Assembly (NCBI GenBank): GCA_036774405.1
Contig: DAIPBO010000009.1
Span: forward strand, 8,083-72,082
DNA from: Chloroflexota bacterium
Lineage (GTDB): Bacteria; Chloroflexota; Anaerolineae; UBA1429
DNA: 64,000 nt
Direction of reading: 5' to 3'
Positions 45,101-62,551 of the stretch are shown here, in pieces. Under the pieces are notes generated by a model that worked only from the letters and a program-made list of their open reading frames with translations, had not been told where the DNA came from and did not search any database. The translations under genes were made by a program, and so were the position numbers. The stretch's first letter is position 1; every line of letters begins with the position of its first letter.

Positions 45101-46925
45101 GAAACGCTTTGATCGCGTGAGAGTGACTCCTCGCACAGAGACAGCGCGAAGGGGCGAGTCGCCCCGGCCAGATTCGCTGCGCGCGGACTCTCAGCGGGCA
45201 GGGAATAGGTGTCTGCGCGCCCTGCTGGCGAGCGGAATGCCCAGCGGCATCCTGCGATCGGGGCGTGGCGGAGCTTTTTCCGCGTCGCACAACGTAGAGA
45301 TGGCCCTTGAGCGACGCCGCGGTCTTGGCCAGCCCCTGCCGGAACCAACTCGCACCAAGATGGAGATGGCTTTTGGGGCTTCGTTCGAGGGCGTTACCGT
45401 TCACACCGGCGGCGAGGCGGATGGCCTCGCGCAGCAGGTGGCCGCGGTGGCGTTCACCCATGGCAAAGATCTGTACTTTTCTGCTGGGGCTTTCGCACCC
45501 GACACGCCACACGGTCAGCGTCTGTTGGCTCACGAGTTGACTCATGTGATACAGCAGCGCCCTGGTCGCAAGGTCATGGTTGGCGCGGCCAATGACCCTG
45601 CCGAGTTGGAGGCCGATGCGTTGGCAGACGCCGTCGTGCAGCGTCTGACCTTTGATAGAGCCAGGGGGCAGAACGAGGTTCAGCCCATTCAGCGGCAAGT
45701 AGAACTTGAGGAAGAGGAGCCCATCCAGGCACTGCGGCGCCAGGTTGAGCCCGAGGAAGAAGAGCCCATTCAGACGCTGCGCCGCCAGAGCGAGGATGAC
45801 GAGTTGGCGCAGCCGCTGCGCCGTTCGTCACCGGTCGAGCCTGTGTCGAGCGCGCCTGCCGTCACATCGCAAGGGCCCACGACGGCCGGCGAGGCCTCAA
45901 CCTATGCCCGAGCTATGCAAGCCTATCGGGCCGGCGAGTTGCGCAGCGCTCAGGACCTCTTTCAGCAGGTGCGCGACGATCCTCAGGTGAGCGACCGTGA
46001 ACGAGCCAGCGCTACCTGGAACGTTGGTCGCATTCATGAGGAGCTGGGCGACGAGGCCGCCGCGCTGGCATGTTATCGCGAGTATCTATCCATGCCCGGG
46101 GCCTCTGCTGACCGTCGTCCGGTGGCCGAACGCATTGTGGAGCGAATGGAGAGCGAGCAGCGGGAGGGCGCAGAGCCGGCCGCTGGCATGGGATCGACGG
46201 CAACGGCCGCTGCAGAGCCCGAGGCCGCCACTGCCGAGACGTCGGCGCCTCACCGTCCTCGCCCCGAGGCCGCCCCCGACCCAGCCTCACGAGCCAGGGC
46301 CGTCTATCGCGAGGGCGTTCGCGCCTATCGCGCGGGCGAGTTGCGTGGCGCTCTGGACCGATTCCAGCAGGTGCTCGAGATCGATCAGGCGCCTGCGAGC
46401 CACCGCGCTAGTGCCATCTGGAACATAGGCCGCATCTATCAGGGGATGGGCAATAGCAGGGCCGCTCTGGCCATGTACCGCGCCTATATCGCTCAGCCCG
46501 CCGTGCCCCCCGAGCGTCTCGAGGTGGCGCAGGGCATCATCGCAGACCTGGAGCGTGAAAGCAAAGCCGGCACTGCGGAACCTGAGGCTGGAGTAGGGGC
46601 TGGCCCCGACGACAAGGCGACGGCGCCCGAACGTCTGCCCACCGTTCCCGAGCAGCGAGCTCAGGCGCTCTATGGCCTGGCATCGCAGGCCTATCAGAAC
46701 GGCGACTATGCCACAGCACTCGAGCACCTGCAACAGCTCATGCGTACCGATGGGCTCGAGCAGCGGTTGTATACCGAGACGCTCTACAACATGGCGCAAT
46801 GTTATCGACGGCTTGGCAACAATGGCGCCGCCATAGACATGTATCGTGGTTTTATGGAGCAGCCCGATGCCGCACCCGAAGAGCGCGAGCGCGCACAGCA
46901 ACTGATCGCGACGCTGCGCCGCTAG
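45093..46925 (+). CDS. DUF4157 (HExxH metallopeptidase-like, eCIS-associated) domain protein with an acidic tandem repeat and three roughly 95-aa TPR-like repeats. Candidate effector/cargo or adaptor.
   Basis: AFGASFEGVTVHTGGEADGLAQQVAAVAFTHGKDLYFSAGAF...LLAHELTHVIQQR matches the DUF4157 core. Start ATG overlaps the ATPase stop (ATGCCTGA). Confidence 0.6.
   Translation: MPEKRFDRVRVTPRTETARRGESPRPDSLRADSQRAGNRCLRALLASGMPSGILRSGRGGAFSASHNVEMALERRRGLGQPLPEPTRTKMEMAFGASFEGVTVHTGGEADGLAQQVAAVAFTHGKDLYFSAGAFAPDTPHGQRLLAHELTHVIQQRPGRKVMVGAANDPAELEADALADAVVQRLTFDRARGQNEVQPIQRQVELEEEEPIQALRRQVEPEEEEPIQTLRRQSEDDELAQPLRRSSPVEPVSSAPAVTSQGPTTAGEASTYARAMQAYRAGELRSAQDLFQQVRDDPQVSDRERASATWNVGRIHEELGDEAAALACYREYLSMPGASADRRPVAERIVERMESEQREGAEPAAGMGSTATAAAEPEAATAETSAPHRPRPEAAPDPASRARAVYREGVRAYRAGELRGALDRFQQVLEIDQAPASHRASAIWNIGRIYQGMGNSRAALAMYRAYIAQPAVPPERLEVAQGIIADLERESKAGTAEPEAGVGAGPDDKATAPERLPTVPEQRAQALYGLASQAYQNGDYATALEHLQQLMRTDGLEQRLYTETLYNMAQCYRRLGNNGAAIDMYRGFMEQPDAAPEERERAQQLIATLRR
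45681..45824 (+). repeat. Imperfect 45-nt tandem repeat encoding (V)E(P)EEEEPIQxLRRQ acidic repeats inside the DUF4157 gene.
   Basis: ...QPIQRQ / VELEEEEPIQALRRQ / VEPEEEEPIQTLRRQ / SEDDELAQPLRR. Confidence 0.5.
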
Positions 46926-46931
46926 GGAGCC

Positions 46932-47777
46932 GTGATGATTCACTTGCTTGATGATGCCATCCGTAAACTGATCCAGACTGAGACGGGCTATGCCGCGCCC
47001 GATGTTGAGGTCAGCTTCAGCCAGCCTACGGGCGATTGGGCAGCTGGCCTGACGCATCCGGTGATCAACTGTTATCTATATGATGTTCGTGAGAATAACG
47101 AACTGCGCTCGGCCGAGTGGACCGTCGACCGCGGCCCCAACGGGTATGCGGCCAAGCGAATGGCTCCGCTGCGCTTTGACGTCAGCTATCTCATCACAGT
47201 GTGGACGCAAGACCATATCGACGACGAGCATGCCATGCTCTGGCGCGTGCTCGAGTCCTTGGCGACGCACGAGACGCTCCCAGACCAGTACTGTGATGAG
47301 GCCCTGAAAAGCCAGCCCTATCCACTGCGCTGCAAGACGGCGCAGGCGACGCGTGCCATCGATGATCTACCCGATTTGTGGAGTGTGATGGACAACCCTT
47401 TGCGTCCATCGATCAACTATGTGGTCACCATGGCAATGGAGCGCATGGAGCCGATCCACAGTCGTCAGGTGGTTACCAAACAGATCGACGTGGTGCAACG
47501 TGGGGTGATCGAAACTCAGGCCGAGACGATCCTGCAGATCGGAGGCATCGTCCACAACGGTGGGCGAACGCCTGCCCCAGTTGCGGGCGCCAGCGTCACT
47601 CTGGTCGAAACGGCCCAGCAGACCTTGACTGATCGGCTGGGGCGCTATCGCTTTCGCAACGTGCCGCGCGGTCGCTATCGGCTGGTGGCAGCCCACGAGG
47701 GCATGCATGGTGAGCGCGAGATCATCGTACCTCTACGTTCGGGCGATACCGACCTGTATGACATCGGTGTGCACTGA
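46932..47777 (+). CDS. eCIS cap/tail-terminator protein (Afp16/Pvc16-like, DUF4255) with a C-terminal carboxypeptidase-regulatory-like beta-sandwich.
   Basis: N-terminus MIHLLDDAIRKLIQTETGY...PVINCYLYDVRENNELRS is the typical DUF4255 start. C-terminal GASVTLVE...GRYRFRNVPRGRYRLVA. Confidence 0.65.
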   Translation: MMIHLLDDAIRKLIQTETGYAAPDVEVSFSQPTGDWAAGLTHPVINCYLYDVRENNELRSAEWTVDRGPNGYAAKRMAPLRFDVSYLITVWTQDHIDDEHAMLWRVLESLATHETLPDQYCDEALKSQPYPLRCKTAQATRAIDDLPDLWSVMDNPLRPSINYVVTMAMERMEPIHSRQVVTKQIDVVQRGVIETQAETILQIGGIVHNGGRTPAPVAGASVTLVETAQQTLTDRLGRYRFRNVPRGRYRLVAAHEGMHGEREIIVPLRSGDTDLYDIGVH

Positions 47778-47855
47778 TGCCGAAAGGAGGCACAGCTTTA
47801 TTCTGACATTGTGGCAGGCACCCTGGCTCTGAGGTTGTGAAAAGGACGAGCGAAC

Positions 47856-49418
47856 ATGCCAATCTATCAGTCTCCGGGCGTTTACATCGAAGAGGTCGAC
47901 CGTGGCACACGGCCCATTGAGGCGGTGGGCACCGCAGTTGCGGCCTTTGTCGGCTTTAGCGCCAAGGCCGAGATGCCAGGCGGCGTCAATGAACCGGTGT
48001 CGCTTTTGGGCAAAGCTGTTGCGGTGACCAACTGGTCGCAGTATGTAGAGAGGTATGGCGGCTTTCTCGATGGGGCATACCTGCCCTATGCCGTGTACGG
48101 CTACTTTTTGAACGGTGGCAGTCGCTGCTATGTCGTCAGCGTCAAGACATTGGGAGCTTCGACAGATCCGAGCCTGGCCAGCCCCGCCATGGTGGCGCTG
48201 CCAAGCGGCGGTGAAAAGCCGGCCGATACCCTACAGATCACGTCACGCTCGGGTGGCCCCGCCGGCAATGATATTCAGGTGGCAGTGCGTCCGCTCGAGG
48301 AGGATCGCTTTACGCTGGTCATCAGCGGGCCCGATGGCGCCAGCGAGACCTTCGAGGGCCTGACTCTCGCCAAAGACGAGCGTAACGTCGAGGTGGTGGT
48401 CAACGCCCAGTCTCGACTGGTCAAAGTGGCGGTGCTTAAGGCGGCTGGCAGTTTGGTCGAGCGCAAGCCCCAAGAGGGCACCTACACGCTGACCGGCGGC
48501 GCTATGCAGACCAAGGCCGTTACTGCGGCCGACTATCGCGGGCAGGTGGCGGAGCGCACGGGGATCGGCGGCCTCGAGGCGGTGGAAGAGATCACCATGC
48601 TGGCTGCACCAGATCTCATGGCCAGCTATCAGGCCGGTGAGATGTCGTTGGGCGACGTGCAGGCGGTGCAGCAGGCAATGTACGAGCACTGCGAACGTGT
48701 CAAGTACGCTTTTGCCATCCTCGATTGCCCACCCGATCTGGGGCCTCAGGCCATGCGCGATTGGCGCCTCACAGCCAACTACGACACCAAGTACGCCGCG
48801 CTCTACTATCCCTGGATCGAGACGGGCGACATGGTACGTGGCAAGGGCGTTGTGCGCGTTCCGCCTTCGGGCCACATCGCTGGCGTCTATGCGCGTAGCG
48901 ACGCCGAGCGGGGCGTACACAAGGCTCCAGCCAACGAGGTGGTGCGCGGTGCTACGGGGCTGCCCATCCAGATCACTCGCGCCGAACAGGATAGCCTCAA
49001 CCCGATCGGCATCAACTGCATCCGATCCTTCCCAGGGCGTGGCCTGCGCGTTTGGGGCGCTCGCACCCTCAGCAGTGATCCTGCCTGGCGCTACATCAAC
49101 GTGCGCCGGCTGTTCAACATGGTTGAAGAGTCGATCGAGCGGGGGACACAGTGGGTCGTGTTTGAGCCGAACGACGCCGACCTGTGGGCACGGGTGCGCC
49201 GCGATGTGCGCGCCTTTCTCAAGACCGTGTGGTCGTCGGGGGCGCTGTTCGGGGCTTCGCCCGACGAAGCCTTTTACGTCAAGTGTGATGAGGAACTCAA
49301 CCCACCCGAAGTGCGCGATCTGGGCCAGCTGATCATCGAGATCGGCATTGCGCCAGTCAAGCCGGCTGAGTTTGTCATCTTCCGTATCAGCCAGTGGGCC
49401 GGGCCATCGGCCGAGTAG
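47856..49418 (+). CDS. Contractile tail sheath protein (Afp2/3/4, phage sheath family).
   Basis: MPIYQSPGVYIEEVDRGTRPIEAVGTAVAAFVG N-terminus. Conserved C-terminal sheath domain (AALYYPW...GHIAGVYARSD...APANE). Size 520 aa. Confidence 0.85.
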   Translation: MPIYQSPGVYIEEVDRGTRPIEAVGTAVAAFVGFSAKAEMPGGVNEPVSLLGKAVAVTNWSQYVERYGGFLDGAYLPYAVYGYFLNGGSRCYVVSVKTLGASTDPSLASPAMVALPSGGEKPADTLQITSRSGGPAGNDIQVAVRPLEEDRFTLVISGPDGASETFEGLTLAKDERNVEVVVNAQSRLVKVAVLKAAGSLVERKPQEGTYTLTGGAMQTKAVTAADYRGQVAERTGIGGLEAVEEITMLAAPDLMASYQAGEMSLGDVQAVQQAMYEHCERVKYAFAILDCPPDLGPQAMRDWRLTANYDTKYAALYYPWIETGDMVRGKGVVRVPPSGHIAGVYARSDAERGVHKAPANEVVRGATGLPIQITRAEQDSLNPIGINCIRSFPGRGLRVWGARTLSSDPAWRYINVRRLFNMVEESIERGTQWVVFEPNDADLWARVRRDVRAFLKTVWSSGALFGASPDEAFYVKCDEELNPPEVRDLGQLIIEIGIAPVKPAEFVIFRISQWAGPSAE

Positions 49419-49461
49419 CTGACTCGTGGCGCATGAGCGCGGCGATTGAGGAGGAACACAG

Positions 49462-49905
49462 ATGGGTGAGCGTCAGGACCCATTGGTTGGTTTTCACTAT
49501 GCCATTGACGTGCAAGGCAAGATCCGCGGTTACTTTACCGAGTGTAGCGGCATCGGCTCAGAGCACGAAGTCATCGAACACAAAGTCGTCGACGAAAAGG
49601 GCCGCGAGGTCATCATGAAGCTCCCTGGACGCCTCAAGTGGGAGAACATCACTCTCAAGCGGGGCATCACCAACAATATGGACATCTGGGATTGGCGCGA
49701 CGAGGTTGTCCGCGGCAAGGTGGATGATGCGCGACGCAACGGCTCGATTATCATGTTCGATCAATCGCTCAAAGAGGTCGCGCGCTGGAACTTTGAGCGA
49801 GCGTGGCCGGTCAAGGTTAGCGGACCGGCGGTCAAGGCTGACAGCAACGAGTTTGCGATCGAGGAACTGGTGATCACGCACGAGTATCTGTATCGCGCGC
49901 CTTAA
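49462..49905 (+). CDS. Inner tube protein (Afp1/Pvc1-like, T4 gp19 fold).
   Basis: PLVGFHYAIDVQG...GYFTECSGIGSE...KWENITLKRGIT pattern of eCIS/T6SS Hcp-like tube proteins. Size 147 aa. Confidence 0.8.
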   Translation: MGERQDPLVGFHYAIDVQGKIRGYFTECSGIGSEHEVIEHKVVDEKGREVIMKLPGRLKWENITLKRGITNNMDIWDWRDEVVRGKVDDARRNGSIIMFDQSLKEVARWNFERAWPVKVSGPAVKADSNEFAIEELVITHEYLYRAP

Positions 49906-49921
49906 GGCTGGCGGCTGAACC

Positions 49922-50281
49922 ATGCAGACCGAATTCACGTTCCGCCTGCCCTTGGGCTATCAGGACGGCGCTGGCCAGGTGCACCGAGAGGGCTCGATGC
50001 GCCTGGCGACGGCCATAGATGAGATCGCGCCGCTTGGCGACGCGCGCGTGCGCGCAAACGAAGCCTATCTCTCCGTGCTGTTGCTCGCGCGGGTGGTCAC
50101 ACGGCTGGGATCTCTTCCGACGGTGACCACCGAGGTCATCGAGGGGTTGTTCTCGGCCGACGTGGCCTTTTTGCAGGCGCTCTATCGGCAGATCAACCTG
50201 ACCGGCGGTTCCGTGGTCGAGGCCGTTTGCCCGCACTGCGGCCAGACGTTTGAGGCGCTGCTCGCCTCGTCCGAACCATGA
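49922..50281 (+). CDS. Small conserved hypothetical protein between the two tube genes (possible assembly chaperone). C-terminal CxxC.
   Basis: 119-aa ORF with an ATG 16 nt after the tube stop. No recognisable family. VCPHCGQTFEAL at the C-terminus. Confidence 0.4.
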   Translation: MQTEFTFRLPLGYQDGAGQVHREGSMRLATAIDEIAPLGDARVRANEAYLSVLLLARVVTRLGSLPTVTTEVIEGLFSADVAFLQALYRQINLTGGSVVEAVCPHCGQTFEALLASSEP

Positions 50282-50322
50282 TCAGGTGACATGAGATCAT
50301 GTGCTGTGAGTAGGATGGGCTG

Positions 50323-50751
50323 ATGGAAGTCGAGGCGTATCCGGCCTTTCGGTTTGCCGTGCAGATCGAGGGCGTCACTGAGGCCATGTTCACCGAATGC
50401 ACCTTGCCGTCCCTCGAGGTAGACGTGCGCGAGCAACTCGAGGGCGGCTATAACGATGGCACGCATCTCTTGCCAGGGCGGGTCAAGCGCGGCACCGTGG
50501 CTCTCAAGCGTGGCGTGGCCCGGCAGAGCGCGCTGCTGCGCTGGTACAACGAAGTGATGCAGGGGCAGATCGCCAAGAGCCGTCGGCAGGTATCGGTGCT
50601 CTTGCTCGACTCGCTTGGCGAGACGGTGCTGCGATGGGATTTCGTCGGAGCCTATCCAACCAAGTGGTCGGGTCCTACACTCAACAGTGGCAGCAAAGAG
50701 CTGGCCGTCGAGACGCTCGAACTGGGCTTTGAGAATGTGACGGTGGGGTGA
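50323..50751 (+). CDS. Second tube paralog (Afp5/Pvc5-like).
   Basis: FRFAVQIEG...FTECTLPSLEVDV...GRVKRGTVALKRGV. Size 142 aa. Confidence 0.8.
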   Translation: MEVEAYPAFRFAVQIEGVTEAMFTECTLPSLEVDVREQLEGGYNDGTHLLPGRVKRGTVALKRGVARQSALLRWYNEVMQGQIAKSRRQVSVLLLDSLGETVLRWDFVGAYPTKWSGPTLNSGSKELAVETLELGFENVTVG

Positions 50752-52793
50752 CTGTGACCGAGCGAACGGCAAAGGTAGACGTGGTAAGCGACCTGGCTCA
50801 CGAGGTGGCCGGTCGGTATGCGCCAGCGAGGCTGCTTGTGGGGCTGGGCTCGACGGGCCCAGTGCGCCTACGGCCGCAGGTGACGCTGCGCCTGAGCGAG
50901 CCGGCACCTCCGGCGATTCCTGGCGAGGCGCAAGAGTCGCCCGTAGCCACAGAGTCCCTGACGACACCAGATAGGTCGGCGGTCGCTCCACCCGAGGTAT
51001 CTACAGCCAGCCAAGGGCGTGCCTGGTATGAGCGGCCGTGGCCGTTCACGGTGGAGCAGGTACAGGCCGCCCTCGAGCAGCCGAAAGTATCCTCACCTGA
51101 GGCCATCGCGGCGTCGCAGATTGTGGCTGAGCCGACGCAATCGGCCGCTGAACAACCATCGCATTCAGGCCCAGCGCCAGATCGCGAGCTGCTGCCTGGC
51201 GCCGCAGAGTCGGCCCCACAACAGGGGGTACCCCCTCGCCGTCGACGCGCACAGGTCGACGAATTGTCTGCGACAGTCACCGCAGTTGCCGAGGATACCC
51301 CGTCTCATAGAGCGCCTCGCGCTGAGTCAGGCCGTATAGACGATGAGATGGTTGCCCCTGCCAGTACGGCCGAGCGGGGGCCGGTCGCCGACGCACACAG
51401 ACCAGCCACTGAGGCCACGCGGCCCGCAGCAGCAATCGCGCGTCGCCAGCGAGTCGATAGCGCGCGACCAGATGCACCTGCTGATGTGATGCCGCCGCGA
51501 GCAGCAGCGCCCGCGCCAGCCAGCCAGGCCCCGAACAAAGACGCGATCGACGCGACTGAAGACAGTGCCATGCAAGTACCCGAACCTCTCGCCCGGCCGG
51601 CGAGAGCCTCGGAGCCAGTCGCGCCGCCGATTGTCTCCAACGCATCCTCTGCTGATGCTGTGGTCGCGCAGAACATGCCCCTCATCGACCTATCCATCGC
51701 CCCCCCGCGTGTCGGGGGTGAATATGATGCTGGGCCGCGCCCAACTGGTGGCGACATAGAGACACGGCCAGCCGCGGAGTCACTGTCCGAGCCCGGTCGC
51801 GCTCTAGCCTCGCCGCAGCCCACAACCATGGTCCGCCCAAGGGCGCCGCTGCTACCATCAACGACAGCTGAACCGCGCAGCAGCGAGGTGGCCCTGACCT
51901 TAGCGGCCGTGCCGCCCGTCGGCGAGCCGCCAACCTCCTTTCTGCCTCCCACAGCGGCGGCAGACGCTACCAGTAGATCGGTGCCCGCGGCTGTGAACGG
52001 TCCATTGCCCCTGCAGCGCAGGGCCGTGCAGCGTAGCGATGTCGCACAGCCTCTGGATCAAGCCGAAAGCCTGCCGGAGCGTCATTCTCAGGCTGAAAGG
52101 CCCACAGAACCTCTGGACAGACCACCCGCAGGGCCACCTGTGTACGACCTCAGCGCGCGGTACGAGGCGGCCCTGGACGCCTATCGTGCTGTGCGCTCAG
52201 GCCAGACAGAGCCGTCCATCGAGGCCGCCTCAGCGTCGCCGGCCATAGCCTCTGAGAACTCAGGTGGCTCGATGGTGCAGCGAGTGTCTCTCCGGTCAGA
52301 GGATGCCGCTTCCGCCTCGCTGCTCGAGCCCTCGGCTCATACCGAGCCGGAGACTCTGGGTACCGCCATCCCGACCTTGTCTCTGGTGCGACCTCTCGCG
52401 CGGGCTGGCGCTGCGGTTGAGCAGGCCCCATCGCCGCAGATGGCGCCAGCAGAAGGCGACCGCAGCGTGCAGCTACAGCGTGTGCAGCAGCCTGTCGCGC
52501 TCGAGCAGGCGCATGTTGGGGCCAGAGTGATCTCGACGCCGCCGATGGTCAGCGAACCGTCGAGGAGCAAGCACGCCGCACCTGAGGCATCTGCCGGTGG
52601 CGATGTGGTTCTGCAGCGCGCAACGGTCACGGCCCCAGAGGGACAGGGCGAAGCGAACACGTCTGGCGCGCAGGCTGGGCCTCCTCCAGCGGCCGAGGTC
52701 AATATCGACCGCCTTGCAGAGGAGGTTATGCAGCGTCTGCGCCGTCGTCTACAGATCGAGGCCGATCGCCTCGGCCGGCCAGGTTGGCGCTAG
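50748..52793 (+). CDS. Large Pro/Ala/Ser-rich low-complexity protein in the tape-measure position (candidate tail-length determinator analog, or a disordered substrate/scaffold). GTG start.
   Basis: 681 aa with extreme P/A/S/E bias and a short helical C-terminus (EVNIDRLAEEVMQRLRRRLQIEADRL). Lies between the tube and the LysM/tube-initiator gene. Confidence 0.35.
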   Translation: MTVTERTAKVDVVSDLAHEVAGRYAPARLLVGLGSTGPVRLRPQVTLRLSEPAPPAIPGEAQESPVATESLTTPDRSAVAPPEVSTASQGRAWYERPWPFTVEQVQAALEQPKVSSPEAIAASQIVAEPTQSAAEQPSHSGPAPDRELLPGAAESAPQQGVPPRRRRAQVDELSATVTAVAEDTPSHRAPRAESGRIDDEMVAPASTAERGPVADAHRPATEATRPAAAIARRQRVDSARPDAPADVMPPRAAAPAPASQAPNKDAIDATEDSAMQVPEPLARPARASEPVAPPIVSNASSADAVVAQNMPLIDLSIAPPRVGGEYDAGPRPTGGDIETRPAAESLSEPGRALASPQPTTMVRPRAPLLPSTTAEPRSSEVALTLAAVPPVGEPPTSFLPPTAAADATSRSVPAAVNGPLPLQRRAVQRSDVAQPLDQAESLPERHSQAERPTEPLDRPPAGPPVYDLSARYEAALDAYRAVRSGQTEPSIEAASASPAIASENSGGSMVQRVSLRSEDAASASLLEPSAHTEPETLGTAIPTLSLVRPLARAGAAVEQAPSPQMAPAEGDRSVQLQRVQQPVALEQAHVGARVISTPPMVSEPSRSKHAAPEASAGGDVVLQRATVTAPEGQGEANTSGAQAGPPPAAEVNIDRLAEEVMQRLRRRLQIEADRLGRPGWR

Positions 52794-52806
52794 GAGGGAT
52801 GCAGAG

Positions 52807-53466
52807 ATGCCTACCACTCGCGGCGGCCTCGAGCCCGCTACCATTACCAACAAGACCACGGGCGAAATCACGGCGTGCATGTTCAATCCGTTTGAGTACA
52901 CGATCAGCAAGCAGAATCAGTACGAGAACGCCGAGACCAAAGGGCGGAACATTCCTCGTGTACGCTTTCGGCAGGGTGGCGCCCAGACGCTGGGGCTCAG
53001 GCTGCTGTTCGACACCTATGCCGAGGCCAGCGATGTGCGGGCCGTCACGGGTACGCTATGGCGCATGATGATGATCGATGAGGATCAGGCTGATAGCCGT
53101 ACCGGCAAAGGAGAGCCGCCACACTGTGTCTTTCGGTGGGGCAGGTTCGAATTCGAGGCCGTGATCACCCGCGTGACAGAGAAGATGACTCTCTTCTTGC
53201 GTGACGGTACGCCGGTGCGCAGCGAGGTTGACATTGCCCTGCAGCAAGTGATCGATGAGGAAGAGCATGCCGCAACCAACCCCACATCGGGTGGTGGTGC
53301 CGCCTATAGGACACGCCTGGTACTGGCCGGCGATCGCCTCGACCTGATCGCCTTTGACGTGTATGGCGATGCCACCCGCTGGCGTCTGTTGGCCGAGGCC
53401 AACGCCATCACCGATCCGCTACGCCTGCGGCCTGGGCAGGTTCTCCTAATCCCACCGTTGGTGTGA
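52807..53466 (+). CDS. LysM-domain tail protein (Afp7/P2 gpX-like tube initiator/baseplate hub component).
   Basis: C-terminal LysM YRTRLVLAGDRLDLIAFDVYGDATRWRLLAEANAITDP...LRPGQVLLIP. GGAGGG RBS. The ORF-track start (52597) lies inside the previous gene. Confidence 0.6.
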   Translation: MPTTRGGLEPATITNKTTGEITACMFNPFEYTISKQNQYENAETKGRNIPRVRFRQGGAQTLGLRLLFDTYAEASDVRAVTGTLWRMMMIDEDQADSRTGKGEPPHCVFRWGRFEFEAVITRVTEKMTLFLRDGTPVRSEVDIALQQVIDEEEHAATNPTSGGGAAYRTRLVLAGDRLDLIAFDVYGDATRWRLLAEANAITDPLRLRPGQVLLIPPLV

Positions 53467-53470
53467 GACG

Positions 53471-55174: not shown

Positions 55175-55177
55175 GAG

Positions 55178-55585
55178 TTGATGATGGCGGCGGTGCCGGC
55201 GGCCAAGCAGGGCGATTTGGTGCAGGCGATGGACACCCACATCGTGATGGTGCCCACGCCCGGTGGATCTGTACCCACGCCCATGCCCGGGCACCCTTTC
55301 GCGGGCACCATCGATGGTGGGTTGAGCAGTAATGTCACCATCATGGGGCGACCCGCTGCCACCATGAACAGTACTGCTACCAACCAGCCCCCACATATAC
55401 CCATCGGCGGGCCATCTTTTCAGGTGCCGCCCAGTAATCGTGCCACCATTGTGCAAGGAAGCGCCACAGTCTTGATCAACGGACTGCCAGCGGCGCGTAA
55501 CGGTGATATGGCGCTCACTTGCGATGACGCCGCACCAGCTCCGCACGGTCAGGTGATTGCCACAGGTACCGTCTTGATTGGCTGA
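55178..55585 (+). CDS. PAAR-domain spike tip protein (Afp10-like).
   Basis: Three PAAR-like beta-strand repeats. Ends GDMALTCDDAAPAPHGQVIATGTVLIG. Size 135 aa. Confidence 0.65.
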   Translation: MMMAAVPAAKQGDLVQAMDTHIVMVPTPGGSVPTPMPGHPFAGTIDGGLSSNVTIMGRPAATMNSTATNQPPHIPIGGPSFQVPPSNRATIVQGSATVLINGLPAARNGDMALTCDDAAPAPHGQVIATGTVLIG

Positions 55586-55599
55586 AAGGCAGGAGACCA

Positions 55600-55995
55600 T
55601 TGGCGGGCGATATCATTGGACGTGGTTGGACATTTCCGCCTCGACTCGATGAGCGTGGTCAGGTCGCCATGGTCGGTGGCGAGGTCGAGATCGAACAGGC
55701 AGTAAGGATCATTCTAGGCACCTCACCGGGCCAGCGGGTCATGCGACCCGAGTTCGGCTGTCGGCTTCAAGAACTCGTTTTTGCGCCCAACAACAGCCGC
55801 ACCGCTGGCCTCGCCGAGCGCTATGTACGCGAGGCGCTAGGGCGCTGGGAGCCGCGCATTCGAGTGACCGCGGTGAGCGTGAGCACTGACAATCAGCATG
55901 AGGGGCAGTTGTCTATCGGCGTCGAGTATCTCATCAAGGCAACTCACTCGAGCCGTTCCTTGGTCTACCCATTCTACCTGATTCCAGAGGAGTAA
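55600..55995 (+). CDS. Baseplate wedge protein gp25/GPW-like (Afp9).
   Basis: GDIIGRGWTFP...EQAVRIILGTSPGQRVMRPEFGCRLQELVF is the conserved GPW_gp25 motif. Size 131 aa. Confidence 0.8.
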   Translation: MAGDIIGRGWTFPPRLDERGQVAMVGGEVEIEQAVRIILGTSPGQRVMRPEFGCRLQELVFAPNNSRTAGLAERYVREALGRWEPRIRVTAVSVSTDNQHEGQLSIGVEYLIKATHSSRSLVYPFYLIPEE

Positions 55996-56001
55996 AGCAG
56001 C

Positions 56002-57987
56002 ATGCCGCTGCCCAGCCAGCCCCTAGATGATCGCTCGTTTCAGGACCTGGTTGACGAGGCCAAGAAGCGCATCCCGCTCTATTGCCCCGAGTGGACTGAT
56101 CACAATGTGAGTGACCCCGGGGTGACACTGATTGAGCTGTTTGCCTGGATGATGGACATGCTCCTATTTCGCCTCAATCAGGTGCCACGCAAGCACTATG
56201 TCAAGCTGCTCGAGTTGCTTGGCATCCAGCTTCAGCCACCAAGGGCCGCTATGGCACCGTTGGTATTCTATCTATCGACGCCACAGGCACAACCGGTGCA
56301 GGTGGCTCGTGGCACCGCGGCGAGCACGAAGCGTTCAGGCGGTGAGGAGGCGATCGTCTTTACCACCGAGAAGGACCTTACGATCCAGCCGGCCCAGCTA
56401 GAGCATCTAGTGGCACGCCGACGTCTCGGCGATCAGGGCATGGTATTCCAGGATATCGGCCTGCAAAGGCTCGAGCGCGACTTTCGTCCGTTCTCTGCCA
56501 CCGATCCGCATCAGGGCGAGGCACTCTACTTTGGTTTGGGCGGCGAGTTGCATCGACACGTGCTCGGGCTCGAGCTCGACTGTGTGCGCGCAGGTGGGCT
56601 GAACATCATCCCAGAAAACCCACCTCTGGTGTGGCAGGCTTGGAGCGAGGGGGGCTGGAGCGATGTTGATGTGGAGCAGGATACCACCGGCGGCCTAAGC
56701 TGGACTGGGCAGGTGCGGATTCATCTGCCCCAGATGGCCCGCAGCGACGTCAACGGTGTTGAGGCGTACTGGGTGCGCTGCCAGGTGATCGCCGCAGAGC
56801 AGGGGCGGCGTGCCTATGCGACCTCGCCGATCATCCGCAATGTGCGGGCTCTGACCTGGGGTGCCACTGTCGATGCCATGCATGCCACCGAGGTACAGGC
56901 CGAGCCGTTGGGGCGCAGTGATGGGTCGCCCGGGCAGGTGTTCAGTCTCGAACACGCGCCAGTTCTGCCGCGCATGAAAGAGGAGTGCGTCGTGATCTGG
57001 CAACCCGGGCTCGACAGCGGGGAGGAATGGCACGAGGTGGAGAGTTTCGCCGAGACCTCGGCCGAGGATCGGTGCTACACACTCGACAGCGCCACCGGTG
57101 AAGTAACCTTTGGCCCTGCCATCCGCCAGCGCGATGGGTCGGTGCGTAGCTACGGGGCCATACCCCCGCGCGGCGCCGAGCTGCGCATGACGCGCTATCG
57201 CTATGGCGGTGGCACTCGTGGCAATGTCCGTGCAGGGGCGGTCACCGAGCTGCGCACTGCCATACCCTACGTCGCACGCGTGACGAATCGCCTGCCGGCC
57301 AGCGGCGGGTGGGACCCCGAGGATCTAGAGGCAGCGATGTTCCGTGCCCGCCATGAGTTGCGGACACGCTATCGGGCGGTAGCTCCTGACGATTTCGAGT
57401 TCTTGGTGCTGCAGGGCTTTCAGGGCCGCATCGCCCGTGCGCGCTGTCTGCAGGCAGCCCAGATGGGGCGTGGCGCACCCTCGCCAGGGCAGGTCTATGT
57501 GGTGGTCGTTCCCCAGCTGTCACCTGACGAGGCTCGGCGCTACATCCCCCCCTCGCGGCTCGCCCTGACGCCCGAGTTGCAGCAAGAGGTCACAGCTTTC
57601 CTGGATGAGCGCCGTCTCTTGACGACGCAGCTGGCCGTGCGTGAGGCGGGCTACAAGCGCATTGCTGTACAGGTGGCGGTCGTAGCCAGGCCAGGCACCG
57701 ACGCCCACCGGTTAAGGACTGATGTGCACCAAGCGCTCGACCTTTTCCTGAATCCTCTCGTGGGGGGATTGGATGGCACCGGCTGGCCCTTTGGGCGTGA
57801 GGTCTATCTGTCTGACCTGTACACGTGTATTCAGCAGGTCGACGGGTTGCTCAACGTACAGACACTGCAGATGGCCTGGCTTGATGAGACCGACCAGCCG
57901 CACCTGGGCGAGCGCAAAATCGACTTGTTGGCGCATGAGGTGGCGATCTCAGACATCCACGTCGTCACTGTTGAGGCGGGAGAGTGA
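56002..57987 (+). CDS. Baseplate J-like protein (Afp11, T4 gp6-like).
   Basis: 661 aa. N-terminal FQDLVDEAKKRIPLYCPEWTDHNVSDPGVTLIELFAWM is typical of baseplate J. Confidence 0.8.
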   Translation: MPLPSQPLDDRSFQDLVDEAKKRIPLYCPEWTDHNVSDPGVTLIELFAWMMDMLLFRLNQVPRKHYVKLLELLGIQLQPPRAAMAPLVFYLSTPQAQPVQVARGTAASTKRSGGEEAIVFTTEKDLTIQPAQLEHLVARRRLGDQGMVFQDIGLQRLERDFRPFSATDPHQGEALYFGLGGELHRHVLGLELDCVRAGGLNIIPENPPLVWQAWSEGGWSDVDVEQDTTGGLSWTGQVRIHLPQMARSDVNGVEAYWVRCQVIAAEQGRRAYATSPIIRNVRALTWGATVDAMHATEVQAEPLGRSDGSPGQVFSLEHAPVLPRMKEECVVIWQPGLDSGEEWHEVESFAETSAEDRCYTLDSATGEVTFGPAIRQRDGSVRSYGAIPPRGAELRMTRYRYGGGTRGNVRAGAVTELRTAIPYVARVTNRLPASGGWDPEDLEAAMFRARHELRTRYRAVAPDDFEFLVLQGFQGRIARARCLQAAQMGRGAPSPGQVYVVVVPQLSPDEARRYIPPSRLALTPELQQEVTAFLDERRLLTTQLAVREAGYKRIAVQVAVVARPGTDAHRLRTDVHQALDLFLNPLVGGLDGTGWPFGREVYLSDLYTCIQQVDGLLNVQTLQMAWLDETDQPHLGERKIDLLAHEVAISDIHVVTVEAGE

Positions 57988-57990
57988 GCG

Positions 57991-58941
57991 ATGGCTGATG
58001 CCCTGGGCGCACGATTGATCATCCGTATGCCCGATGGCCCCGACGTAGTTTTTGCACTTGCTCAGCCGGTGGTGCGCATCGGCCGTAACCCTGCGCCACA
58101 GAACGACCTGGTGCTACCACATAGCGCTGTGTCGCGCTATCACGCTCGCATCTACTGCGATCGCTTGCCCTATCGCGTGCAAGATGTGGGCAGCAGCAAC
58201 GGCACCGCCCTGAACGACGCGCCGGTGGCCCCTAATGAGATGTGGCCCCTGACTGACGGCGATATCATTGGCATCGGGCCCTTTCGGCTGACCTATGTGG
58301 CACCCCGCGAGTCGGATCAGGCTTTGGCCATCGAGCCTCCTGTGGCGAGGGCTGAGGCAGAGATCGCCGCAGGTGGGCAGGCAATGCCCGGCACACCAGG
58401 TGGCGCAGAGCCGCCCATCCCCCCCTCTCAAGGGCAGCGTGTATTGTCAGAGCCGCCGCCATGGTTAGGCATGCCCACCGACGCCAGTCGGTGGTTGCAG
58501 CACCTGCCGCCACTCTACGCCGAGGAAGGATTCCTGGGGCGGTATCTCCTGCTGTTCGAAGATTTGCTGGGGCCAGCCGAACAGGCGATTGCGCATTTCG
58601 ACCTGTTCCTTGACCCCGAGACCTGCCCCGATGATATGGTGCCGTTGTTGGCGCAGTGGCTTGGCGTTGAGGTTGCCGAGCGCTGGCCACTGGCCGTCAA
58701 GCGGCAGCTCGTAAAGCATGGCGCCTGGCTGCATCGAGCCCGTGGTACGCTGCCTGGCCTAAAGCGTCACCTCGAGATCTGCACGGGCGGTGCGGCCGAG
58801 ATCAGCGAGAACGACGAGCGCCCTCACACCATCGTCGTTCGCATCGCTGCCCCTCAAGAGACGATCGATCGGCCGCTGCTCTCTGAGGTGATCCGCTATC
58901 ACTGCCCTGCTCACGTGGGCTTTGCCTTACGGATAGACTGA
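57991..58941 (+). CDS. FHA domain fused to a P2 gpI-like baseplate protein (Afp12-like).
   Basis: N-terminal FHA (VVRIGRNPAPQNDLVLPHSAVSRYHARIY...VQDVGSSNGTALND). C-terminal LDPETCPDDMVPLLAQWLGVEV...KRQLVKHGAWLHRARGT matches the tail protein I family. Confidence 0.7.
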   Translation: MADALGARLIIRMPDGPDVVFALAQPVVRIGRNPAPQNDLVLPHSAVSRYHARIYCDRLPYRVQDVGSSNGTALNDAPVAPNEMWPLTDGDIIGIGPFRLTYVAPRESDQALAIEPPVARAEAEIAAGGQAMPGTPGGAEPPIPPSQGQRVLSEPPPWLGMPTDASRWLQHLPPLYAEEGFLGRYLLLFEDLLGPAEQAIAHFDLFLDPETCPDDMVPLLAQWLGVEVAERWPLAVKRQLVKHGAWLHRARGTLPGLKRHLEICTGGAAEISENDERPHTIVVRIAAPQETIDRPLLSEVIRYHCPAHVGFALRID

Positions 58942-58951
58942 CGACGGCCCT

Positions 58952-61900
58952 GTGCCGAGAAAGGCGACTGACATGGAGAGACTCGTTGGCACGGTGCTCA
59001 ATAGCTCCTATCGCGTTGACAAGCTGCTTGGCCAGGGGGGCATGGGCGCCGTCTTTCGCGCTCGAGACGTCGCACTGGACAGAGACGTGGCCATCAAGCT
59101 GATGCATAGCCACATCTCGACGCAGCAAGGCTTTCGCGAGCGCTTTTTGCAGGAAGCACGGGCCATCGCCGCTCTGTCGCATCCTGGCATCGTGCCGATC
59201 CACGCCTTCAGTAGTGATCCCCAGCAGCTCTATATCGTGATGGCGTTCATCGAGGGGCAGAACCTAGCCGACTGGCTTCATCTGCTCAATCAGCGCCAGC
59301 AGACGGCCTCGCTTTCCGAAACGCTGGGCATCGCCGAGATGGTGGCCGACGCTTTGGCCTATGCGCATCGTCGGGGCGTGTATCATCGCGACATCAAGCC
59401 CGGCAATATAATCCTTAGACCGCTGGAGGCGGGACAGGTCAACGAGGCGGGGCTGACCTTTCACCCCATCGTGACCGACTTTGGCCTGGCCAAACTGGCT
59501 GAGGGCGGCGTGCAGTCGATGGCAGGGCTCTCGATGGGCACGCCGGCCTACATGGCGCCCGAGCAGTGTGAAGCCAGGCCCATCGACGGTCGCGCTGACC
59601 TCTACTCGCTGGGCATCGTGCTCTACGAGTTGGTCGCAGGGCGCGTGCCCTTTGCAGTCAGCACCCTCACCGAGGCGCTGAAGGCTCACACACAACAGAC
59701 GCCGCCTCCACCACGTACACTGGCGCCCGATCTGCCCACGTCTGTCGAGAGGGTCATCCTCAAGGCACTGGCCAAGCGGCCCGAGGAGCGCTTTCAGAAT
59801 GGCGCCGAGATGGCCGAAGCGCTGCGCCTGGCGCGGCAGGGTCTGTCGGCTGACCAGGGGGCCTCCACAGCAGCGCCCACGCAGGCGGGCTATGCCAGCC
59901 TGGCAACGTTGATGTCACAGCAGACGCCACCGCCAGCGCCCAAAGAGGCGGCCTGGCCTACGCCGCCCTCTGATCTCGAAGCTGGTGCTCAGGTTATGGT
60001 GATGGCCCCCGATGGCACGAGTAGCGCGGTGGCCTTTGGGACGCGAAGCGCCCTCACCATCGGCCGTGACCCCGGCAACAGCATCGCGCTGGACGATCCG
60101 CAAGTCTCGCGCCAGCACTGCCAGGTGAGCACCGACAACGGGCGGTTTTTTGTGACCGACCTCAATTCGACCAACGGTACCTTTCTGGGCGACAACAAGC
60201 TGCTGCCGGGCGTGGCCGAGCCCTGGCGGCCAGGGCAGCCTGTACGCGTAGGGGGGCATTGGCTGCGTCTGCGGTTGGCCGAGGGCGGCTCACGACCGGT
60301 GGCTCAAGAGGCATTGTCTGCCGCTGTGGGCCCACGCCTGACCGCAAGGCCTGTCACCCTGACGCTCGAGCCTGAGCGCGTGATTGTAGAGCCTGGCAAG
60401 GCCGTGAACATGACGCTTCATGTGCTCAATCAGCAGCAGCAGGTCGATCATTTTGTCGCGGTGGTAGAGCAGCTGCCACAGCAGTGGGTTACAGCCCCTG
60501 CCCAGCCATTGCGCCTTGCCCCCGGCGATGCCGGCATCTTGGCTCTGCGCCTAGCGCCGCCTCGTGACGCGACCAGCGTGAGTGGCGAGCATGTCTTTGA
60601 TGTTCGCGTGGTATCACGGGCCGACCCGAGCATCAGCGCTCAGGCCACCGGCACTTGCCAGATCACGCCGTTTCGCGCCATGAGCCTCGACCTGCAGCCC
60701 AGCACCTTTGTCAACGCGGGCACGGCGTTCCTCGGTGTAGCGAACCAAGGCAATAGCCTGGAGACCATAGAGTTGGCCGTGGTCGACCCAGCAGGGGTGT
60801 TGGCCACACCCCCTTCGAGCCAGCGCCTTGTGTTGCAGGCAGGGCAGCGCCAGCAGGTAGAACTGCCTCTTGTCGCCAAGCGGAGGCGCCCCTTGATCGG
60901 CAATCCGAGTACCAGCGCTTTTCAGGTGCAGGCGCGCGCCCAGGAGCAACAGCTCGCCGCGGTACAGGGCTCGTTCACGGTGAGACCGATCGTGCCCACG
61001 TGGGCCATCCCCATTCTCACGACGCTGGTGTTGCTGCTCTGCGCGGGGGTGGCGCTCGCCTACAACAACGCCCAAAAGGGCAGGACAGCCGAACGCACCG
61101 CCATCGCGATGGGCATCAACCAGGCGACGGTAACCGCTGAAGCGGTCATGGCCATCAATGCGACGCAAACGGCAGAAGCATTGGCCGCAGTGGCGACGTC
61201 ACAGGCTCAGGCAGAGGCTACTGCCAACATGCAGACGGCCACCGTTGTAGCGGCCAAGAGCACCGCAGACTGGCTCGCTGCCGATACCGATGGAGATGGG
61301 CTGACCAATGCACAAGAGCAGGCCTATGGCACAGACCCTCATAACATCGACACCGATGGGGATACCCTACCAGACGGCCACGAAGTGGCGACCGGAACGA
61401 GCCCCGTCAATCGAGACACCGATGGCGATGGCCAGCAGGACAACGTTGACCCCAGCCCCGGCGAGCTGCCCACCGCCACACCCTCGCCCACCTCTACGGC
61501 CACGCCGACGCTGACGCCGAGCCCGTCGCCAACGCCAGAGCACGTTTTTGCAGCCGACCAGATCCGCTCGTTTGCAGTGGTAGCCACCGATGTTGGCACT
61601 GTGACGGGGGTCTGCATCAGGCACGATAATGCGGGGCCAGAACCCGATTGGTTCGTATCAGAGGTGCGCGTCGACGGTGGGGCAGGGTTTGTCTCGTTTA
61701 CGTTCAATCGTTGGTTGGCCACTGACAAGGCCGATGGGATGATCGAGGCGTGTCGTGGCACCGCAACCAGTCTTCTCATCGAAGGGCGTCTACCGCCGGC
61801 ACGACCGGACTTGATTGAGGATAGCGCGTTCCATCTGCTTGCTCTGACGCCCACGCCCACGATCGATTTCGGCGTCATCCGCGAGTTCTACCAGGTGCAG

Positions 61901-62050
61901 CCCAGGCCCTTCTTGCCCATGCTGCCTCTCGGCAAGGCCTACACCATCGAGATTACGACGGGCAACGCCAACGGTGCGGGCACCAGCGCCAAGGTGTCGG
62001 CCAAGATAGCGGGAAGTAGCGGGCAGACCGACTGGATCGCTGTAGAGTAG
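58952..62050 (+). CDS. Transmembrane Ser/Thr protein kinase. Architecture is kinase - FHA - tandem beta-sandwich repeats - TM - thrombospondin type-3 repeats - PLAT/LH2 domain.
   Basis: Hanks motifs GQGGMGAVF, AIK, HRDIKPGNIIL, DFG and APE. Internal FHA (ALTIGRDPGNSIALDDPQVSRQHCQV...NSTNGTF). TM WAIPILTTLVLLLCAGVALAY. TSP3 DTDGDGLTNAQE / DTDGDTLPDGHE / DTDGDGQQDNVD. C-terminal PLAT-like beta-sandwich. Confidence 0.8.
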   Translation: MPRKATDMERLVGTVLNSSYRVDKLLGQGGMGAVFRARDVALDRDVAIKLMHSHISTQQGFRERFLQEARAIAALSHPGIVPIHAFSSDPQQLYIVMAFIEGQNLADWLHLLNQRQQTASLSETLGIAEMVADALAYAHRRGVYHRDIKPGNIILRPLEAGQVNEAGLTFHPIVTDFGLAKLAEGGVQSMAGLSMGTPAYMAPEQCEARPIDGRADLYSLGIVLYELVAGRVPFAVSTLTEALKAHTQQTPPPPRTLAPDLPTSVERVILKALAKRPEERFQNGAEMAEALRLARQGLSADQGASTAAPTQAGYASLATLMSQQTPPPAPKEAAWPTPPSDLEAGAQVMVMAPDGTSSAVAFGTRSALTIGRDPGNSIALDDPQVSRQHCQVSTDNGRFFVTDLNSTNGTFLGDNKLLPGVAEPWRPGQPVRVGGHWLRLRLAEGGSRPVAQEALSAAVGPRLTARPVTLTLEPERVIVEPGKAVNMTLHVLNQQQQVDHFVAVVEQLPQQWVTAPAQPLRLAPGDAGILALRLAPPRDATSVSGEHVFDVRVVSRADPSISAQATGTCQITPFRAMSLDLQPSTFVNAGTAFLGVANQGNSLETIELAVVDPAGVLATPPSSQRLVLQAGQRQQVELPLVAKRRRPLIGNPSTSAFQVQARAQEQQLAAVQGSFTVRPIVPTWAIPILTTLVLLLCAGVALAYNNAQKGRTAERTAIAMGINQATVTAEAVMAINATQTAEALAAVATSQAQAEATANMQTATVVAAKSTADWLAADTDGDGLTNAQEQAYGTDPHNIDTDGDTLPDGHEVATGTSPVNRDTDGDGQQDNVDPSPGELPTATPSPTSTATPTLTPSPSPTPEHVFAADQIRSFAVVATDVGTVTGVCIRHDNAGPEPDWFVSEVRVDGGAGFVSFTFNRWLATDKADGMIEACRGTATSLLIEGRLPPARPDLIEDSAFHLLALTPTPTIDFGVIREFYQVQPRPFLPMLPLGKAYTIEITTGNANGAGTSAKVSAKIAGSSGQTDWIAVE
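61280..61455 (+). repeat. Three tandem thrombospondin type-3 (DxDxDG) calcium-binding repeat units inside the kinase gene.
   Basis: Repeated gacaccgatggnga-type units encoding DTDGDG. Confidence 0.5.
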
Positions 62051-62094: not shown

Positions 62095-62547
62095 TCAGCG
62101 GGAGAGGGCCAGCCGCTCGGCTTCGCGGGCGACCTGACGTAGCGGCACACCATGGGCCTCTGCCACGCTGGCGCAGTCATCGTACTCGGCCTTGGCGGCC
62201 ACCACACGCCCCTTGATCAGTTTAAGCTTGCAGTGCACTTCGCCCCAGGGTGTTGAGACGGTGACGGTTTGCCGCTGACAGACGATGCGCTGCCACGTCT
62301 GCCAGCGCACACCCAACGTCGACGTATGCAGCAAGAGGCGGTCGCGCAGGCTTGCTGCATCTTCTGGGCGGGCCAGCACGCTGAACACCACGGCTGGACG
62401 GCTCTTTTTCATCACGATGGGCGTGTGCCAGGCATCAAGCGCTCCCTCGCGCAGCATCGCCTCCAGCACATGCCCCAGTTCTTCGCCGGTCATATCGTCG
62501 ATGTTGCAGGTCAGCAGAACGACATCCTCACATTGCGGCGTAGACAT
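62095..62547 (-). CDS. larC: LarC C-terminal domain only (DUF111 C-terminal half, LarC2-like CTP-binding domain).
   Basis: NIDDMTGEELGHVLEAML...TPIVMKKSRPAVVFSVL and ...AKAEYDDCASVA... match the middle and C-terminal conserved blocks of DUF111/LarC. Only 150 aa. No N-terminal half is adjacent. Confidence 0.5.
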   Translation of the reverse strand: MSTPQCEDVVLLTCNIDDMTGEELGHVLEAMLREGALDAWHTPIVMKKSRPAVVFSVLARPEDAASLRDRLLLHTSTLGVRWQTWQRIVCQRQTVTVSTPWGEVHCKLKLIKGRVVAAKAEYDDCASVAEAHGVPLRQVAREAERLALSR

Positions 62548-62551
62548 GGAG

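Follow-up and report, generated by a model that had tools for sequence, protein, structure and literature searches.

What takes the place of CisA in Chloroflexota is the question raised by the locus described here. In Streptomyces, membrane recruitment and triggering of the contractile injection system (CIS) depend on CisA (PMC12237407), and the CIS of Chloroflexota lack close cisA homologues (PMC12998442, a 2026 study of Roseiflexus), so that their mechanism may differ. The locus lies at 42989-62050 of a stretch of 64,000 nucleotides (nt) from a Chloroflexota bacterium of the class Anaerolineae (assembly GCA_036774405.1, contig DAIPBO010000009.1, positions 8,083 to 72,082 of the forward strand), which was analyzed whole and is called the window. 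Its penultimate gene encodes, in a single open reading frame (ORF), an FHA domain fused to a baseplate-wedge domain of the gpI/Cis12 family (FHA-Cis12), and the gene that follows encodes a membrane Ser/Thr kinase. This arrangement is real and widespread, and it is apparently an undescribed variant of contractile injection system. The features of the fusion gene were the following:

57991..58941, + strand: FHA-Cis12 fusion gene, with an ATG start, 316 amino acids (aa) in a single ORF, FHA plus Tail_P2_I/TIGR02242
58012..58302, + strand: FHA domain, predicted phosphothreonine (pThr) reader, aa 8-104 (PF00498, fold, conserved residues)
58303..58476, + strand: disordered Pro/Ala/Glu-rich tether, aa 105-162 (low model confidence, family composition)
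58477..58938, + strand: gpI/Cis12 baseplate-wedge domain, aa 163-316 (TIGR02242, 9gtp_E, Foldseek 9gtp_A)

The family matches of the protein were far beyond chance. In Pfam, PF00498 (FHA) matched aa 28-96 over the entire profile (1-67/67) with E=3.7e-18 and 66.1 bits against a cutoff of 20.7, and PF09684 (Tail_P2_I) matched aa 197-301 with E=8.8e-16 and 58.5 bits against a cutoff of 20.6. In NCBIfam, TIGR02242 ("phage tail protein domain") matched aa 170-277 (E=4.3e-22, 78.6 bits against 51.85) and TIGR01634 (tail_P2_I) reached 35.5 bits against 30.05. The initial annotation, a reading of the sequence alone, had placed an FHA signature (G-R...S..H...NGT) in the N-terminal ~100 aa, which proved right, and a P2 tail protein I region in the C-terminal ~200 aa. 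The family of this second region was correct (PF09684, TIGR01634) and its size was not, since the domain covers about 150 aa (163-316) and aa 105-162 form a linker.

An AlphaFold2 model built on 99 homologues (mean predicted local distance difference test, pLDDT, of 85) divided the protein in the same way. The FHA domain (about residues 8-103) was all-beta with a pLDDT of 96-98, the segment 114-152 was disordered (pLDDT <50), and the C-terminal domain (167-315) was alpha/beta with a pLDDT of about 88-97. The all-beta model and its target TM-scores of 0.8-0.9 in Foldseek agreed with the eleven-stranded beta-sandwich of FHA domains. Every family feature that was tested was present, and the protein belongs to the FHA family as well as to the gpI/TIGR02242/Cis12-core family.

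The fusion was not confined to the window. The identical FHA-Cis12 protein was encoded on 12 independently assembled metagenome contigs, and when 80 related loci were taken from species-representative genomes and annotated with hidden Markov models built from the family, the single-ORF architecture was found in 61 of them. All 80 loci were labelled as Chloroflexota metagenome-assembled genomes (MAGs) except three, which were probably mis-binned; the same locus layout was also present in a closed 6.25-Mb long-read MAG. Around 100 clusters (at 90% identity) showed the FHA+Tail_P2_I architecture, down to ~31% identity, a profile search for the fusion returned 203 clusters at E<=1e-20, and a search seeded with a member from the class Chloroflexia added 258 further clusters at E<=1e-10. 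When the Cis12 domain alone was compared exhaustively (phmmer) with 1.84 billion representative sequences, 711 matches were obtained at E<=1e-10, and an N-terminal FHA domain was carried by 105 of the best 150 of these. Judged from these matches, the fused form is the norm for the Cis12 proteins of this branch. The databases thus hold hundreds of clusters with the architecture found here, and they label these relatives merely as "FHA domain-containing protein" or "phage tail protein I".

Some members of the family deserve a separate mention. Two fusion contigs (L026 and L039) and one protein (P0336) were labelled as Rhodothermaceae, Bacteroidetes and Burkholderiales MAGs; these are probably mis-binned Chloroflexota contigs, horizontal transfer being the other possibility. 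The Cis12 homologue P0217 (417 aa) carried a C-terminal cyclic-nucleotide-binding domain (PF00027, E=1.4e-20), which is, by domain assignment, a second kind of signalling domain on the same baseplate subunit. Around 17 other close Cis12 relatives had an N-terminal extension of 140-200 aa without a Pfam match.

FHA domains are generic pThr readers, and whether this one has kept the pocket was examined in an alignment of the 99 homologues, which were 31-73% identical. Conservation was nearly complete in the GR loop (G31 97/99, R32 96/99), in the SRxH motif (S48 93/99, R49 96/99, H51 98/99) and in the SNGT motif (S68 99/99, N70 94/99, G71 99/99, T72 96/99), the pThr-binding residues being at least 90% conserved. 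The Arg/Ser/Asn triad, whose lack the initial annotation had named as a reason to abandon its reading, is therefore present. Furthermore, the FHA model superposed on OdhI, GarA and Rv0020c (FhaA) with root-mean-square deviations of 1.6-2.4 A at 32-37% identity (Foldseek). An unused pocket is not expected because the phosphate-contacting Arg, Ser and Asn were kept in at least 93% of such divergent sequences, and the FHA domain of Cis12 is predicted, from these residues and the modelled fold, to be a competent-looking pThr reader.

GarA, OdhI and FhaA are actinobacterial pThr readers partnered with membrane Hanks kinases, and GarA and OdhI are themselves kinase substrates. Their FHA domains were the closest to that of Cis12 by both sequence and fold; nevertheless, they belong to stand-alone metabolic or cell-wall regulators, without fusion to a baseplate protein. 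A recent copy of the FHA domain of the adjacent kinase onto Cis12 was considered and found unsupported, the two domains being 32% identical and no closer to each other than either is to OdhI.

The linker between the two domains varied from 42 to 128 aa across the family (median 63) and was composed largely of Pro (26%), Ala (15%) and Glu (14%). In one uncultured Chloroflexia (L052, 9890-11296) it reached ~200 residues, almost all of them PEPEPE repeats. The variable length, the Pro/Ala/Glu-rich composition and this extreme case argue for selection to keep the spacer flexible, whatever its sequence. No conserved phospho-acceptor Thr was found in the linker in the consensus of the 99 homologues, T134 and T163 not being conserved.

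The locus around the fusion consists of 15 genes, all on the + strand. In the order of the genes, with FHA-Cis12 standing between the last two entries, its features were these:

42989..47777, + strand: AAA+ ATPase with winged helix, eCIS_core (DUF4157)+TPR protein and Pvc16-like cap, the upstream end of the locus
47856..53466, + strand: sheath, tube 1, chaperone-like 119-aa ORF, tube 2, 681-aa orphan ORF and CIS_tube-LysM tube initiator
53471-55174, + strand: VgrG-like spike (Phage_base_V 1.6e-29; VgrG_rel NF033848 3e-114)
55178-55585, + strand: PAAR tip (PAAR 1.7e-17)
55600..55995, + strand: gp25-like baseplate protein (PF04965, E=6.3e-27)
56002..57987, + strand: baseplate J/Cis11 wedge protein, just upstream of FHA-Cis12 (TIGR02243, E=1e-138; 9gtp Cis11, E=2.5e-146)
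58952..62050, + strand: membrane Ser/Thr kinase of 1025-1032 aa, the last gene of the locus (Pkinase, FHA, PLAT, TSP3, transmembrane helix)

The position of FHA-Cis12 directly downstream of baseplate J was detected in 45 of the 61 fused loci, and the order of the rest of the locus was conserved. In the window, 4 nt separate the stop codon of baseplate J from the ATG of the fusion, and a Shine-Dalgarno-like GGGAGAG was found 9-15 nt upstream of this start. Promoter and terminator signals in a scan of 55.5-62.6 kb were no better than chance. A family could be assigned to 14 of the 15 ORFs and none was fibre-like; no tail-fibre gene was recognisable among them in comparisons with Pfam, NCBIfam, PHROGs and PDB sequences. 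The 681-aa ORF (50748-52793, + strand) had no match in these four collections, and it is presumed from its position to be the tape measure.

By match scores, the closest characterised system is the type IId cytoplasmic CIS of Streptomyces coelicolor (CIS-Sc). Among solved structures, the sheath, Cis11 and the Cis12 domain all had their best match in CIS-Sc, with the AFP, PVC, AlgoCIS and Anabaena systems much more distant. The sheath matched that of CIS-Sc (8bky/9gtp) with E=4e-161, while the sheaths of these other systems reached 1e-55 at best, and Cis11 matched its counterpart in 9gtp over the full length (E=2.5e-146). The Cis12 domain matched 9gtp_E with E=3.9e-24 in a profile comparison and 9gtp_A with E=4e-9 in Foldseek (target TM-score 0.67), and the Tri2 protein of R-pyocin (PA0619, 6u5b) with E=1.4e-5. 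The CIS of the window is probably cytoplasmic as well by analogy. In CIS-Sc, a type IId system without tail fibres, each wedge is made of two Cis11 and one small Cis12 (PMC12237407), and the chain counts per particle in 9gtp are 6 Cis12 and 12 Cis11. Its firing requires CisA, a bitopic membrane protein encoded just after the baseplate genes, in the usual position of the fibres (PMC12237407).

Both systems share a minimal Cis12 (~150-190 aa), the lack of a recognisable tail-fibre gene and a bitopic N-in membrane protein encoded right after the baseplate genes. They differ in that Cis12 of CIS-Sc has no FHA domain, and CisA, whose cytoplasmic tail is disordered and whose outer domain is substrate-binding-like, has no kinase, FHA or Ig-like module; CisA and the kinase of the window are likened by gene position and topology. 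The gpI/Afp12-like assignment of the initial annotation consequently held for the shared gpI core and not in detail, because the protein is a minimal Cis12 of a Streptomyces-type (IId) CIS and not Afp/PVC-like. P2 gpI, Tri2 and Afp12-Pvc12-Cis12 belong to the same wedge family (PF09684, TIGR01634, TIGR02242), with the gene right after baseplate J, whereas these proteins carry no signalling domain and their systems use tail fibres. The long Afp12/Cis12 of extracellular CIS (eCIS) have ~470 residues N-terminal to the shared core. Membership in CIS12_fam (NF053768) was rejected, with 57 bits against a cutoff of 860 and only positions 472-572 of the 715 in the profile aligned.

The locus was also considered as a type VI secretion system (T6SS), and this was rejected. 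The TagH family (TIGR03354) scored 31.2 bits against a cutoff of 120.25, with the FHA domain alone aligning, and in the Pfam and NCBIfam scans no ORF of the locus matched the T6SS core (TssJLM, TssK, ClpV) above threshold. A sub-threshold TssF match on baseplate J was the sole sign of a T6SS family; the families present were instead of the eCIS type (Pvc16_N, eCIS_core, CIS_tube, AAA+ with winged helix).

The last gene of the locus provides a candidate partner for a pThr reader in the baseplate. Its start is ambiguous, either the GTG at 58952 of the ORF list or the ATG at 58973 of the metagenome gene calls (1025 aa), 10 and 31 nt respectively after FHA-Cis12. Numbered from the GTG, the protein contains a Hanks kinase domain (aa 20-282), a Thr-bearing linker, an FHA domain (aa 369-432), a module of two immunoglobulin-like (Ig-like) domains (about aa 465-680) and a transmembrane (TM) helix (about aa 680-700), followed on the outside by a TSP3 repeat and a PLAT domain (Pfam: Pkinase E=3.8e-44, FHA 1.2e-17, PLAT 5.6e-10, TSP3 8e-8). 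The VAIK, HRD, DFG and APE motifs were intact when read in the sequence, and a hydropathy scan found one TM helix. Since the kinase domain needs ATP, the topology has to be N-in, C-out, as for CisA. Beyond these two adjacent genes, no FHA domain or Hanks kinase was present in the 64-kb window. An outside PLAT domain is unusual on a bacterial kinase.

Residues about 465-705 of the kinase formed a homologous module beside Cis12 in nearly all of the 80 loci. Pfam searches on the partner proteins identified it as Ig-like beta-sandwiches of the NPCBM_assoc/FixG_C type followed by the TM helix, which implies that the conserved partner is a membrane protein with the layout FHA(x1-4)-Ig2-TM-variable ectodomain. 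In the subfamily of the window, the otherwise variable stretch between the kinase and its FHA domain contained two conserved Thr motifs, S-L-[AV]-T-[LM] and W-P-T-P-P-S, which are candidate pThr ligands of the baseplate FHA domain. In seven loci of Aggregatilineales and Anaerolineae (L036, L037, L042, L045, L047, L049 and L057) the partner kinases were ~2100 aa long with four FHA domains each, and a further TM protein of ~700 aa with a C-terminal FHA domain came after them.

The co-occurrence of fusion and kinase was analyzed in the 80 loci, of which 61 were FHA-fused and 19 unfused (mostly Dehalococcoidia), requiring a downstream flank of at least 6 kb for the fused loci (36 loci) and at least 3 kb for the unfused (15 loci). 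The FHA-Ig2-TM partner was present in 34 of the 36 fused and in all 15 unfused loci, with the FHA domain in 13 of these 15; the unfused partners were usually convergent and 3-66 nt away. A kinase domain on the partner was found in 29/36 fused versus 0/15 unfused loci (Fisher p=5e-8, uncorrected for phylogeny).

The unfused Cis12 proteins differed at their N-termini. In 14 of the 19 these read M-T-T-P-T (10), M-T-T-E-E (2) or M-A-M-T-P-T-S (2), and in the 12 TTPT/TTEE cases the start codon stood immediately before the motif. This Thr-rich start was followed by a variable spacer of 40-65 residues and then by the gpI domain, and the partner was an FHA-Ig2-TM protein without kinase (loci within L059-L084, e.g., L060 9569-10564, L077 9629-10510 and L078 9926-10576). 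GarA and OdhI possess Thr-rich N-terminal phospho-acceptor tails that are bound by FHA domains. The pairing of a Thr-rich tail with a partner FHA domain suggests, from these sequence features, the same contact between baseplate and membrane with reversed polarity.

Taken together, six tethered FHA domains may connect the baseplate with the membrane kinase in its phosphorylated state and thereby gate docking and firing, a reading that we put forward as tentative. Cis12 would have gained an N-terminal pThr-binding FHA domain on a flexible tether of ~60 residues, giving, by analogy with S. coelicolor, six tethered FHA domains per baseplate (six wedges with a single Cis12 each). A cue from the envelope or from outside the cell would activate the kinase, its variable outside part (TSP3 and PLAT here) serving as the sensor region, and the kinase would autophosphorylate Thr residues of its own cytoplasmic linker. 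The FHA domains of the baseplate would then bind these pThr sites multivalently, which would draw the free-floating CIS to the membrane and license or trigger firing. In function, this binding would stand in for the contact that phages and eCIS make between tail fibre and receptor, and also for CisA, on which Streptomyces depends. By analogy, the locus may work most like the PpkA-Fha pathway of the T6SS put onto a Streptomyces-type CIS, but with the reader built into the baseplate and the kinase in the place of CisA or tail fibres. The docking and firing reading is favored because the kinase sits in the position of the tail fibres and CisA with intact motifs and one TM helix, and because the fusion co-occurs with a partner kinase.

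Several points weigh against it. That phosphorylation takes place, which pThr the FHA domain binds and which step is under control are all inferred. The fused and unfused classes are largely distinct clades, so that their co-occurrence with the kinase is supportive and not decisive; moreover, 7 of the 36 fused loci showed no kinase, 5 of these having a kinase-less partner, which means that a cis-encoded kinase is not obligatory. Many FHA domains prefer a hydrophobic residue or Asp at pT+3, a preference that the candidate Thr motifs do not fit, and the FHA domain of the kinase itself could occupy the same sites. A seed search for a PP2C phosphatase found none in the 64-kb window. In the related lineage of Roseiflexus, CIS particles have been seen unanchored in intact cells. 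Finally, no cultured carrier of the fusion appeared among the matches, every named one being a MAG. The direct phospho-dependent control of assembly or firing proposed in the initial annotation gained support from the co-occurrence of the fusion with a kinase domain on the adjacent membrane protein, and it stays an interpretation in which assembly, anchoring or firing may be the controlled step.

A first alternative, which we consider somewhat unlikely, is an assembly checkpoint like that of the T6SS, in which the FHA domain would recruit the kinase to the nascent baseplate and phosphorylation of CIS parts would control assembly or competence instead of docking and firing. The T6SS offers a precedent. 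Its FHA protein is, as the initial annotation correctly stated, a separate scaffold; TagH/Fha binds pThr on PpkA and is a substrate of this kinase, and the pathway controls assembly, binding of Fha to pThr on PpkA or TssL promoting activity (PMC13584744). The TagE/PpkA-TagH/Fha1-TagG/PppA system resembles the locus in having a membrane Hanks kinase and an FHA reader inside a contractile-injection locus, and differs in that the FHA domain of the locus is on a baseplate subunit. Its PP2C phosphatase has a counterpart in only some of the related loci: PP2C genes were found downstream on the same strand in six of them (L025, L046, L047, L056, L057 and L072), which indicates reversible signalling there. 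The checkpoint would also be in line with GarA and OdhI, the closest FHA relatives, being kinase substrates. Nevertheless, the Cis12 linker offers no conserved Thr to phosphorylate, the membrane protein of CIS-Sc is dispensable for assembly and needed for contraction (PMC12237407), and a membrane-bound kinase in the tail-fibre position fits docking better.

Alternatively, the FHA domain could target the CIS to some other phosphoprotein, for example a division or cell-wall protein that housekeeping kinases phosphorylate, comparable to FhaA/FipA in actinobacteria, or else a cargo or effector that is itself phosphorylated. In the seven fused loci without a kinase in the flank another kinase or ligand must serve, the domain is a generic reader, and a weak NCBIfam similarity to FhaB/FipA was detected. 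The nearly universal FHA-Ig2-TM partner, the strong correlation of the fusion with a kinase on this partner and the lack of any other candidate gene conserved in the loci make this unlikely.

Less probable still is a phospho-independent scaffold, the FHA fold acting as an oligomerisation module on the periphery of the baseplate like the FHA-like domain of YscD/PrgH in the type III secretion system. PF16697 (Yop-YscD_cpl) did match the FHA region (E=4e-12), and in the unfused lineages the FHA partner persists in loci that encode no kinase. However, PF00498 outscored PF16697 (66 versus 47 bits), the phosphate-contacting residues would hardly be conserved to this degree, and a long disordered tether separates the FHA from the baseplate domain, unlike in a fixed scaffold element. 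Lastly, an artefact joining two genes by mis-assembly or an unseen frameshift, the latter being the other ground on which the initial annotation would have given up its reading, was rejected as practically inconceivable, given the continuous frame, the 12 independent contigs and the recurrence of the architecture in 61 of 80 loci and hundreds of clusters down to ~31% identity.

Additionally, several observations were made on the rest of the locus and its flanks. The 681-aa ORF overlaps the next listed ORF, and the metagenome gene calls gave instead a protein of 651 aa and, after it, a CIS_tube protein of 219 aa. The eCIS_core domain of the window was found solely in the upstream eCIS_core+TPR gene (45027-46925); in many related loci a further eCIS_core (DUF4157) gene, encoding 240-300 aa, stood between the fusion gene and that of the kinase (e.g., L036 10942-12042, L052 11365-12177, L075 3461-4348 and L085 11159-12067), and in L031 and L050 this slot was occupied by an N_BRCA1_IG-domain protein. 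Housekeeping genes flank the locus on both sides. Upstream stands a divergent DHDPS gene (41856-42815). Downstream, at 62095-63980 on the - strand, it abuts LarC-like (Ni_insertion), LarB-like (AIRC) and LarE-like (NAD_synthase) genes, identified by the Pfam labels on an identical metagenome contig, which form a set for nickel-pincer cofactor biosynthesis and appear to have no relation to the CIS. No tRNA was found in a scan of the window.

The docking reading can be extended to the whole group, although we hold this wider form more loosely, as a possibility. Type IId CIS of Chloroflexota might use a pThr contact instead of fibres, with a TM kinase/FHA receptor sensing the envelope, a polarity that varies by lineage and a Cis12 terminus open to sensor modules. 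In Anaerolineae and Chloroflexia, Cis12 appears to carry the FHA domain and the membrane protein the kinase; in Dehalococcoidia, the membrane protein appears to carry the FHA domain, and Cis12 a Thr-rich N-terminal MTTPT tail. If this holds, the Cis12 with a cyclic-nucleotide-binding domain would mark the terminus of this protein in cytoplasmic CIS as a general place where sensors of second messengers or of phosphorylation can be plugged in to time firing.

No description of an FHA domain or a kinase tied to the baseplate of a non-T6SS CIS was found in the full-text literature, in which subscription papers are only partly covered, and neither is mentioned in the most relevant CIS papers, including the study of CIS-Sc (PMC12237407). 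If the reading is correct, this would be the first post-translational signalling domain to form part of a phage-tail-like baseplate, in a family that is large and yet annotated generically, and it would suggest a trigger that can be switched and programmed in engineered injection systems. With its phospho-reader in the baseplate and a kinase encoded where CisA or tail fibres would be expected, the locus provides a concrete, testable candidate trigger and, if the reading is true, an answer to what replaces CisA in Chloroflexota. In Streptomyces, intracellular CIS are fired within the cell that makes them and lead to its death (PMC12237407), and the same has been proposed for Roseiflexus (PMC12998442). 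If true, the coupling described here would connect signalling by Hanks kinases with regulated cell death or with secretion in the filamentous Chloroflexota, a group abundant in digesters, sediments and mats.

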